Positions 24,194 to 25,370 of a stretch of 64,000 bases of DNA are shown piece by piece. The number at the start of each line of letters is the position of its first letter. The stretch's first letter is position 1. The translations under genes were made by a program, and so were the position numbers. Below the pieces are notes generated by a model that did not search any database, was not told the DNA's origin, and saw only the letters and a program-made list of their open reading frames with translations. The stretch is from a virus (lineage: Duplodnaviria; Heunggongvirae; Uroviricota; Caudoviricetes): IMG/VR virus record IMGVR_UViG_2671180921_000012. One strand, 5' to 3'.

Positions 24194-25114
24194 TTATGGA
24201 TTGCGCTTATGGATCTGGAAGCCGATTTTCCTGCCGTTTTTTATCTCTGAAAATTTAAGATATTCAATAGCTTCCAAATCTTTCATGGCTTTTCTGATAA
24301 CGCTATTTTGCACGCTAACGGATGATTTGAGATTAAGCCTCGCTCTAAGGCGCTCAATGCTGACAGGTGCCGGGTTGGCGGGTAGAGCCTCAAAGAATGT
24401 ATACAGTACCTTGGCCGTCTCTTTGCGCCCTAGTTTATCCAGCATCTTCAGCTTCAGGATTCGCTTATAGTCAACATAGTAAAGTTCAGATAGCTGTTTC
24501 TGCGGCTGGATCTCGATAACATCAAGCTCGGTATTCAGGCTGCTATATGCCAACAAGTTGACGTTAATGTTATTGAGATGACCTTTTGCCGCCGGGAAGC
24601 GGAATTTGACAACTGTCTGCTGAATGCGTGTCAGAGAGTCATCAATACTTTTACGGAACGCCTTTGAAAGGCGCTTACGTGGATAGCCGCATCGATCGGC
24701 AAACTCGGAGAATGGCAGGGTGATTATGCCGTCATCATCAGGTGCGTAGTCAAACAACGCGGAGGTTATGCCCACCCACACCTTAAAATCAGTATCCATA
24801 TCCAGGCGTGGACCATGAATTTCAATTCCCTCATAGCCTTCCTGCTCAACAATTTTGAGGCTTGATAGTTCTTCAGTTGCGTTCGTTGTGTTTGTTGTAA
24901 CTGACGATCCGCGACGTAGCGCCACATTGGTAGATTTTAAGGTTGGCACAAACACACCTAAGCGCAACAAAGCGATGGGTTGTATAGTGCTGTTGTTATT
25001 GGGCTTCAGGCTGTGGATTTCTCCTGTATTTCCTGCAACTTCTTCAACGCTAAGGAAGCCTTTACTTTCTTCCGGCATCACGGTTTCTCCATGTGTGGCG
25101 CGGCCTGACGTCAA
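24194..25114 (-). CDS. repA: Iteron-binding replication initiator RepA, RepFIB-like (likely start at 25078)
   Basis: LKPNNNSTIQPIALLRLGVFVPTLKS... and ...GPRLDMDTDFKVWVGI match the RepFIB/P1 RepA family; flanked by iterons. Confidence 0.85.
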   Translation of the reverse strand: MTSGRATHGETVMPEESKGFLSVEEVAGNTGEIHSLKPNNNSTIQPIALLRLGVFVPTLKSTNVALRRGSSVTTNTTNATEELSSLKIVEQEGYEGIEIHGPRLDMDTDFKVWVGITSALFDYAPDDDGIITLPFSEFADRCGYPRKRLSKAFRKSIDDSLTRIQQTVVKFRFPAAKGHLNNINVNLLAYSSLNTELDVIEIQPQKQLSELYYVDYKRILKLKMLDKLGRKETAKVLYTFFEALPANPAPVSIERLRARLNLKSSVSVQNSVIRKAMKDLEAIEYLKFSEIKNGRKIGFQIHKRNP

Positions 25115-25159
25115 TTTGGATGGCTGTTATCAACAGCTGTGAATATTCAGGCTCTAAAA

Positions 25160-25258
25160 TCGCTTACAGTCAATGTTTCTGTCGCGTATAGTCAACAATA
25201 AATCGCGTGCAGTCAACAATAAATCGTGCACAGTCAACATAAAATCGCGTATAGTCAA
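25160..25258. repeat. Origin iterons (incC-like): five direct 14-bp repeats at 21-22 bp spacing
   Basis: TCGCTTACAGTCAA, TCGCGTATAGTCAA, TCGCGTGCAGTCAA, TCGTGCACAGTCAA, TCGCGTATAGTCAA at 25160, 25182, 25203, 25224, 25245. Confidence 0.85.
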
Positions 25259-25299
25259 TGTTGATCCCATTTCAAGCCAGTAATGACGCGGCTTACAGC

Positions 25300-25370
25300 G
25301 ATCCGGGATCTTCTTTGGATCTTCCTAGGTTCTCTTTAGGATCTGTTTATTGGATCTATGCTGTGGATAA
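25300..25370. promoter_or_regulatory. oriR accessory elements: GATC-containing repeats plus DnaA box
   Basis: GGATCT-type repeats at 25307, 25318, 25340, 25353 plus GATC at 25300; consensus DnaA box TGTGGATAA at 25362-25370. Confidence 0.75.

Follow-up and report, generated by a model that had tools for sequence, protein, structure and literature searches.

The locus raises the question of whether a phage-plasmid that carries the partition genes of P1 also carries the P1 replicon, or whether that replicon has been exchanged and, if so, for one of which type. The window analysed here, the whole 64,000-nt stretch from virus record IMGVR_UViG_2671180921_000012, had been described in a first-pass annotation as a mosaic in which P1-type ParA, ParB and parS stand beside a RepA closer to RepFIB initiators and beside iterons unlike those of P1. 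The region is very probably the low-copy maintenance unit of a P1-like phage-plasmid whose classical P1 (IncY) R replicon has been replaced by a p0111 replicon. The mosaic is real but ordinary, as it corresponds to a replicon type that is already published (PMC9603915, PMC11165635, PMC5241659).

Outside the replicon, the window is that of a P1-like phage-plasmid. Megablast against a complete P1 genome shows that the genes from the tail-fibre region through c1 follow the order of P1, in blocks spanning 3-14428, 15122-20653, 25362-32863, 33960-48170 and 57132-64000 with 94-99% identity; the third block is interrupted by a small gap and lacks an internal part of dmt. In blastn comparisons with P1 (NC_005856), the left flank of the replicon (18000-23025), which covers gp22/gp23, parS, parB, parA and the par promoter, is 99.4% identical, and the right flank (25274-28463) is about 96% identical. 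The intervening sequence (23026-25273) finds no blastn match in P1 or P7 except for one 59-nt alignment of 76% identity within repA. The non-P1 cassette is 2.3 kb long, extends from 23026 to about 25365 and takes the place of P1 nucleotides 61316 to about 62930, between upfA and an intact P1 par operon that still has its promoter. Besides repA and a complete origin, the cassette carries a T5orf172/GIY-YIG gene and an incA-like iteron array (Table 1). Because the flanks are of P1 type at these identities, RepA is only 40-42% identical to P1/P7 RepA and P1-type iterons are gone, the replicon is concluded to have been exchanged within a P1 backbone whose ParABS remained that of P1. This is the exchange that the first-pass annotation had proposed, and the result it had named as refuting the proposal, a RepA and iterons of the standard P1/P7 versions, was not obtained.

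Table 1. Features of the partition and replication region, with positions counted from the first nucleotide of the window.
Feature	Position	Strand	Remarks
parS centromere, P1 type	20622..20704	-	Aligned to parS as annotated in P1 and P7
parB	20709..21710	-	333 aa; 333/333 identical to P1 ParB, 43% to P7 ParB
parA	21727..22923	-	398 aa; 397/398 identical to P1 ParA, 58% to P7 ParA
par promoter/operator kept from P1	22978..23006	-	Ppar position from the P1 annotation; scan gives TGTACA-17-TATTAT
Cassette left end	23026..23229	.	P1 identity ends at 23025/23026, 20 bp upstream of the Ppar -35
Terminator-like hairpin	23070-23084	-	Downstream of the T5orf172 gene
T5orf172/GIY-YIG-family gene, "gp57" of JL22	23230..23901	-	223 aa; Pfam T5orf172, phrog_2876
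incA-like control array	23935..24193	.	Weight-matrix scan and repeat finder; six strong sites
repA, p0111 type	24194..25078	-	ATG start, 294 aa, GGAG 8 nt upstream
Iteron within the repA coding sequence	24458..24476	+	Encodes VDYKRI; score and orientation as for the origin iterons
Five origin iterons (incC-like)	25157..25260	+	19 bp, consensus AAATCGCGTATAGTCAACA, start-to-start 22/21/21/21 bp
GATC cluster, presumed opening region and Dam/SeqA target	25263..25356	.	Six GATC, AGATCC-type heptamers
Perfect DnaA box TTATCCACA	25362..25370	-	Outer end of the origin; the cassette right end lies about here

The partition module is that of P1 in each of its components. ParA and ParB are canonical P1 proteins, as had been claimed, and far from those of P7 (Table 1). 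The coordinates of parS come from the NC_005856 annotation, shifted according to the blastn alignment of 99.4% identity. All ParB A boxes and the specificity-determining B boxes (TCGCCA) match P1 and differ from P7, and the few differences from P1 are confined to the spacer around the IHF site. ParA, ParB and the parS B boxes alike place the module in P1 ParABS (type Ia, P1 specificity).

The two ends of the cassette differ in how sharply they can be drawn. At the left end, a query across the junction is matched over its full length in 408 complete E. coli genomes, at 95-100% identity, and about 150 more genomes match only up to 23025; these combine a P1-type parA with another replicon. It follows that the left junction is a fixed one and that, among E. 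coli, the replicon is essentially always linked to a P1-type par. The right junction lies at about 25362-25372 (about 25362 by megablast), beyond which identity to P1 is 95.5%. A junction at 25274, inside the origin, as suggested by the blastn extension of the P1 alignment, was considered and rejected. The 90-bp segment by which that alignment reaches into the origin, like the GATC region as a whole, is only 78% identical to its P1 counterpart but 90% identical to that of a p0111-like relative (L009), and megablast sets the boundary further out. The likeness of the GATC/DnaA half of the origin to P1 reflects conservation across the family, since P1, F RepFIB and IncFIB(K) all have the same plan. 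Its greater likeness to the p0111-like relative indicates that the whole origin arrived with repA.

The identity of the incoming replicon can be established by comparison with named elements. The repA gene is nearly the same as that of pO111_2 (NC_013370) from E. coli O111:H- 11128, with 292 of 294 amino acids and 873 of 885 nucleotides identical, which is above the level of about 95% nucleotide identity to the reference that defines a p0111 rep gene. The context agrees, as the gene has parA and upfA of a P1-like backbone on its two sides and is accompanied by the "gp57" gene. Judging from accession numbering, pO111_2 is presumably the source of the PlasmidFinder "p0111" reference: AP010962, cited as that reference (PMC11165635), was linked to pO111_2 by consecutive accession numbers, and NC_002483 and NC_013370 stood in for AP001918 and AP010962 as comparison sequences. 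Over a 1.6-kb core, the region is 97.9-99.7% identical in phi456, SJ46, JL22, Ro157c2YLVW, RCS47 and three records named P1; JL22, which is typed as p0111 (PMC9603915), shows 98.3% identity over these 1.6 kb. In pO111_2, RCS47, SJ46, JL22 and phi456, the cassette is essentially identical and has the same P1-type parA junction, and only the length or splitting of the T5orf172 gene differs.

The cassette is also widespread. At 98-100% identity it occurs in SJ46, RCS47, JL22 and phi456, in 374 PLSDB plasmids (at least 80% coverage) and in 402 of 5,426 complete E. coli genomes. Previous work reported that JL22 carries repA' (p0111) and gp57 in place of repA (IncY), and found p0111 in 24 of 55 P1-like elements (PMC9603915). 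In another survey, 63 of 119 P1-like phage-plasmids were of p0111 type (PMC10879196), and in Salmonella 132 p0111 elements stand against 94 IncY elements, with about 17 switches of type inferred along the tree (PMC11165635). For SJ46 and RCS47, an identity of 42% to P1 RepA has been noted (PMC5241659). A term search of a 2025 NAR paper on FIB replicons (PMC11983097) returned no mention of p0111. In the searchable literature, no origin mapping, RepA-iteron binding or incompatibility test was found for the p0111 replicon.

The T5orf172 gene, which is absent from P1 and P7, suggests one way in which such switches might come about. The encoded protein could be a homing-type nuclease that cuts IncY-type P1 near the par-rep junction, with repair co-converting the replicon, so that the replicon would spread actively. 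In the phage collection, the gene occurs in only 12 records, all of which also carry a p0111-type replicon, and among P1-like phages it is found only together with that replicon. It lies at the cassette edge beside the fixed junction, and its product, 97-100% identical to its counterparts in p0111-replicon phages, has residues typical of the domain (YLYVL, KIG, R31, TEWF). The switches counted in Salmonella (PMC11165635) would fit such activity. However, the protein is not known to act as a nuclease or to have a target site, and neither PADLOC nor NCBIfam returned a match for it. The gene is also dispensable: intact in the window, it varies in length, reaching 269 aa in RCS47, and in pO111_2 it is broken into two ORFs, which shows that maintenance does not require it. 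Moreover, the relative of the replicon in D6-like elements is without the gene, and homologous recombination in flanks of 96-99% identity suffices for the switches. Active spread by homing is, on balance, decidedly unlikely.

The RepA protein itself leaves little doubt, on its sequence, about its membership in the Rep_3 family of iteron-binding initiators. Pfam (PF01051 / PF21205) scores 27.3 bits for Rep3_C (cutoff 21.1) and 22.0 bits for Rep3_N, just under the threshold of 22.4, and full-length homology to P1 RepA and RepFIB reaches E values down to 1e-70. As is typical of the family, repA is flanked by direct iterons beside a putative opening region with a DnaA box. Searching the PDB with the RepA sequence yielded nothing significant, and NCBIfam gave no match. 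The TTG at 25114 chosen by the ORF lister is probably not the repA start.

Within the family, RepA is 42% (local) or 40% (global) identical to P1 and P7 RepA, which bears out the claim that it is not the P1 protein. It is 47% identical to the RepA of F and pO157 RepFIB, 48% to Klebsiella IncFIB(K) RepA (48-49% across IncFIB(K)-like initiators) and 54% to the Rep of a Providencia/Proteus plasmid. These Providencia/Proteus proteins (for example, that of pPROV083-1) and the IncFIB(K)-like proteins, each about half identical to RepA, are its nearest relatives outside phage-plasmids, and they reside on large conjugative plasmids. In a neighbor-joining tree, RepA groups with the Providencia Rep with 98% bootstrap support and weakly with IncFIB(K)-like proteins, apart from the F/P307 RepFIB proteins, which P1 RepA joins weakly. 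Among 5.8 billion clustered proteins, its own cluster and a relative of 85% identity are followed by a gap, the next match being 53% identical. By these comparisons, RepA is a separate branch of a single P1-RepA/RepFIB family. The suggestion that RepA lies nearer to RepFIB than to P1 RepA holds numerically (47% versus 40%), but the label "RepFIB-type" is imprecise, as P1 RepA is just as close to F RepFIB (47%) and the tree sets RepA apart.

A genuine IncFIB replicon of F/P307 type, recently captured from an F-like plasmid and hence incompatible with IncFIB plasmids, is therefore a very improbable reading. It draws on some GenBank annotations that say "RepFIB replication protein A", on the higher identity to F RepFIB than to P1 RepA and on a TAGTCA core common to both iteron sets. 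Shared features extend to the Rep_3 family and to the plan of GATC heptamers and a DnaA box, which the replicons of F, P307 and pO157 have in common with the window. However, an identity of 47%, which P1 RepA equals, is far below the level used in replicon typing, the protein falls on a separate branch with the Providencia Rep, and a gap down to 53% surrounds its clusters. RepFIB RepA is also longer (325 aa versus 294 aa). Outside the core the iterons differ, with 7 mismatches to those of F RepFIB in 16 aligned positions; the iteron of the Providencia plasmid, ATCGACTAGCATCAACAA, is similar to ATCGCGTATAGTCAACA at its two ends. PlasmidFinder-based studies, for their part, assign p0111 rather than IncFIB (PMC9603915), and typing-level RepFIB RepA and iterons are both missing from the window.

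The origin retains the P1-like architecture that had been described for it, with a DnaA box, a GATC cluster, five phased iterons, repA and a downstream array all found. The phasing of the origin iterons is identical to that of P1 incC. The GATC cluster places six sites in 94 bp where about 0.37 would be expected from the density in the window (Poisson P about 3e-6). The single DnaA box contrasts with the two tandem boxes at the outer end of the P1 origin. The order of DnaA box, AGATCC-type heptamers, GC-rich spacer, five iterons and repA is common to P1, F RepFIB and IncFIB(K). A consensus sigma-70 scan of the repA strand turned up no convincing promoter for repA among the iterons, unlike the situation in P1, and autorepression via the iterons is consequently without support.

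A weight matrix built from the iterons and scanned over the whole 64 kb found 12 sites with scores of 23-27, none of them outside 23935-25260. Elsewhere in the window the maximum was 11.1, and the repeats therefore lie far beyond chance. In the downstream array, the strong sites are inverted at 23935, 23965, 23997 and 24059, with a phasing of about 31 bp, and direct at 24151 and 24175. Three further candidates, at 23979, 24028 and 24131, score 6-9, within the background, although the position of the one at 24028 fits the phasing of the adjacent sites. The array had been credited with nine incA repeats; its existence stands, but a count of nine is reached only if these three background-level sites are included. 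By comparison, the P1/P7 array has nine iterons (6+3), where the window has six strong ones (4+2).

One strong site lies inside repA itself and had escaped the first-pass annotation. P1 repA has no internal iteron, whereas L009 has one at the same codons. The five codons that are fully internal to the site are identical in both lineages, against a typical codon identity of 47% (chance about 0.02). However, 14% of all 19-nt windows in repA are conserved as well as this one, and conservation of the internal iteron beyond coding constraint is for that reason only weakly indicated.

The iterons also bear on whether the locus could be an ordinary P1/P7 (IncY) R replicon whose P1 counterparts had simply been misstated in the first-pass annotation. 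The resemblance is considerable: the P1/P7 replicon (oriR-incC, repA, incA) occupies the same slot between parA and upfA and has five iterons spaced at 22/21/21/21 bp, a GATC cluster, DnaA boxes, an array in two orientations with a phasing of about 31 bp and an initiator of the same protein family. Nevertheless, the iteron AAATCGCGTATAGTCAACA is unrelated to the P1 iteron GATGTGTGCTGGAGGGAAA, as had been recognised. A P1 matrix that scores 18-31 on P1 sites reaches at most 15.6 in the 64-kb window, with nothing in the rep region; in the absence of any strong P1-type iteron, no IncY determinant remains. Both a P1-type RepA and GATGTGTGCTGGAGGGAAA-type iterons in incC/incA are missing, blastn is blank apart from the single 59-nt alignment, and the window further differs from P1/P7 in the iteron inside repA and in the T5orf172 gene between array and Ppar. 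An IncY replicon is thus already refuted and deserves hardly any credence. An assembly chimera or one-off cointegrate junction, for which nothing specific speaks and which only the sharp block boundaries bring to mind, is refuted in its turn and merits practically none, given that the same parA-cassette junction is shared by 408 complete E. coli genomes and recurs in phages that were sequenced independently.

The replacement of the R replicon by p0111 has a parallel outside the P1 group. A RepA relative with 85% amino acid and 77% nucleotide identity is encoded by eight PLSDB plasmids of about 94 kb (NZ_CP085065.1 and seven others). These plasmids are D6-like, with a major capsid protein 87.6% identical to that of phage D6, and thirteen of their structural proteins are 38-57% identical to the P1 counterparts. 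The relative L009 has the identical 5+1+2+4 iteron layout, including the internal site, together with the GATC region and the DnaA box. In the D6-like elements, however, the replicon lies between homologues of pmgB and tub, with neither an adjacent par operon nor a T5orf172 gene. Because the layout is kept where both of these are missing, the portable module can be delimited to about 23935-25372. In phage D6 itself, the pmgB-tub slot is occupied by an unrelated Rep_3 gene, so replicon swapping has also occurred in the D6 group. A more ambitious proposal is that the p0111 replicon is a self-contained, phage-plasmid-specialised module of about 1.44 kb (23935-25372) that has moved between P1-like and D6-like elements, that keeps a fixed 5+1+2+4 grammar with a functional internal iteron and whose replacement of IncY was possibly aided by a homing-like T5orf172/GIY-YIG nuclease. 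Taken as a whole, this proposal is unlikely.

The p0111 replicon in its P1 backbone can be assigned a working model by analogy with its relatives, on the basis of homology to P1 RepA and RepFIB at 40-47% identity and of the conserved architecture; its binding, opening, copy control and incompatibility are all inferred in this way. Shown by the sequence analysis are the anatomy and its statistical significance, its conservation in a diverged relative, the exact junctions and the match to the p0111 type. RepA monomers would bind the five 19-bp origin iterons and, together with DnaA at the flanking box, would melt the GATC-rich region next to them so that DnaB can be loaded. Re-initiation would then be timed or delayed by Dam methylation of the GATC cluster and its sequestration by SeqA. 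The downstream iterons would limit copy number through titration of RepA and handcuffing to the origin, a role in which the internal iteron may also take part. Segregation would be mediated by P1 ParA and ParB acting on the P1-type parS.

For P1-like phage-plasmids, which often carry genes for resistance and virulence, the distinction between IncY and p0111 is used in detection and typing, and in that respect the assignment is mainly a matter of bookkeeping. With the replicon exchanged, replication incompatibility with P1 and P7 (incA/incC) should have been lost, and replication control should not keep elements with different replicons from coexisting. Published statements that IncY and p0111 are "theoretically compatible" do not address incompatibility based on parS. 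Partition incompatibility (incB, mediated by parS) should have been retained, and the P1 parS should continue to set this element against others that carry P1 par.

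Partition genes, like replicons, are subject to replacement in this group of elements. In the records used here, ParA and ParB of the phage-plasmid RCS47 (locus L002, 1860-4074) are 100% identical to those of the window (20709-22923). Both share 99.7-100% identity with the proteins of P1 (NC_005856), compared with only 58% (ParA) and 43% (ParB) with those of P7 (AF503408). These records contradict the assignment relayed by PMC5241659, according to which RCS47 and P7 have identical ParA and ParB proteins, distant from their P1 counterparts. OP279344.1 (L014, 54477-56644) carries partition genes whose lengths, 966 and 1206 nt, are those of P7, and it has no megablast match to the window across par; therefore, the par module has also been exchanged among P1-like genomes. 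The OP279344.1 record, from an isolate with a res/mod deletion, is titled 'Escherichia phage P1'.

Features of the window discussed here
Feature	Position	Strand or orientation	Description
Unmatched stretch	14429-15121		no match in the P1 isolate used for mapping
T5orf172/GIY-YIG-family gene (phrog_2876)	23230-23901	minus	between iteron array and par promoter
Perfect 12-nt inverted repeat	23984-24010		GACTACAGTCAA / TTGACTGTAGTC, 3-nt spacer
Internal iteron	24458-24476	as origin iterons	full strength; inside repA CDS, codons VDYKRI
Dmt methyltransferase gene	28875-31139		754 aa
Unmatched stretch	32864-33959		no match in the P1 isolate used for mapping
Segment of ~9 kb	48171-57131		megablast finds no counterpart in the P1 isolate used for mapping; encodes two Ead/Ea22-like proteins, one DUF551 protein, one S24 peptidase (HumD-like)

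Within the p0111 replicon, the non-P1 cassette that carries repA, iterons are not confined to the arrays. The D6-like relative NZ_CP085065.1, whose replicon is 77% identical, has an internal iteron at the matching codons (L009, 6603-6621), whereas P1 repA has none. There are slight indications that this internal iteron is conserved beyond coding constraint. The inverted repeat in the downstream array is formed by the iteron at 23997 and a half-iteron that faces it. In other Rep_3 plasmids, Rep dimers bind inverted half-iteron operators. The repeat in the window recalls such operators, but it is located downstream of repA.

Adjacent to the array, the T5orf172 gene is confined, within the phage collection, to records with a p0111 replicon. 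In RCS47 the gene encodes 269 aa, and in pO111_2 it is split. The protein could be a homing-type nuclease or a mere passenger.

Further differences from P1 lie outside the replicon. The ~9-kb segment corresponds to the known variable region of P1-like elements that extends from pmgT to phd, and the two short unmatched stretches fall at the rlfA/rlfB and tciA variable-region positions. Dmt has the same length in CP088846.1 as in the window, in contrast to ~1013 aa in P1 and pO111_2; over dmt, the P1 alignment skips ~1 kb at 29106 and leaves 29598-30026 unmatched.

The MOB-suite typing supplied with PLSDB labels CP088846.1 (L003), which bears exactly the window's replicon, as 'IncHI1B', and the D6-like relative (L011) as 'rep_cluster_2164'. 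Tools therefore disagree in the automated typing of the p0111 replicon. Certain D6-like phage-plasmids (L009 and L011; NZ_CP085065.1, 77421-78921) encode a relative of the p0111 RepA that is 85% identical, with an unchanged iteron layout. The replicon of this relative is flanked by the pmgB and tub homologues, a slot in which phage D6 carries an unrelated Rep_3 gene (L019, 45841-46596). Because one slot holds either gene, the D6 group also swaps replicons.
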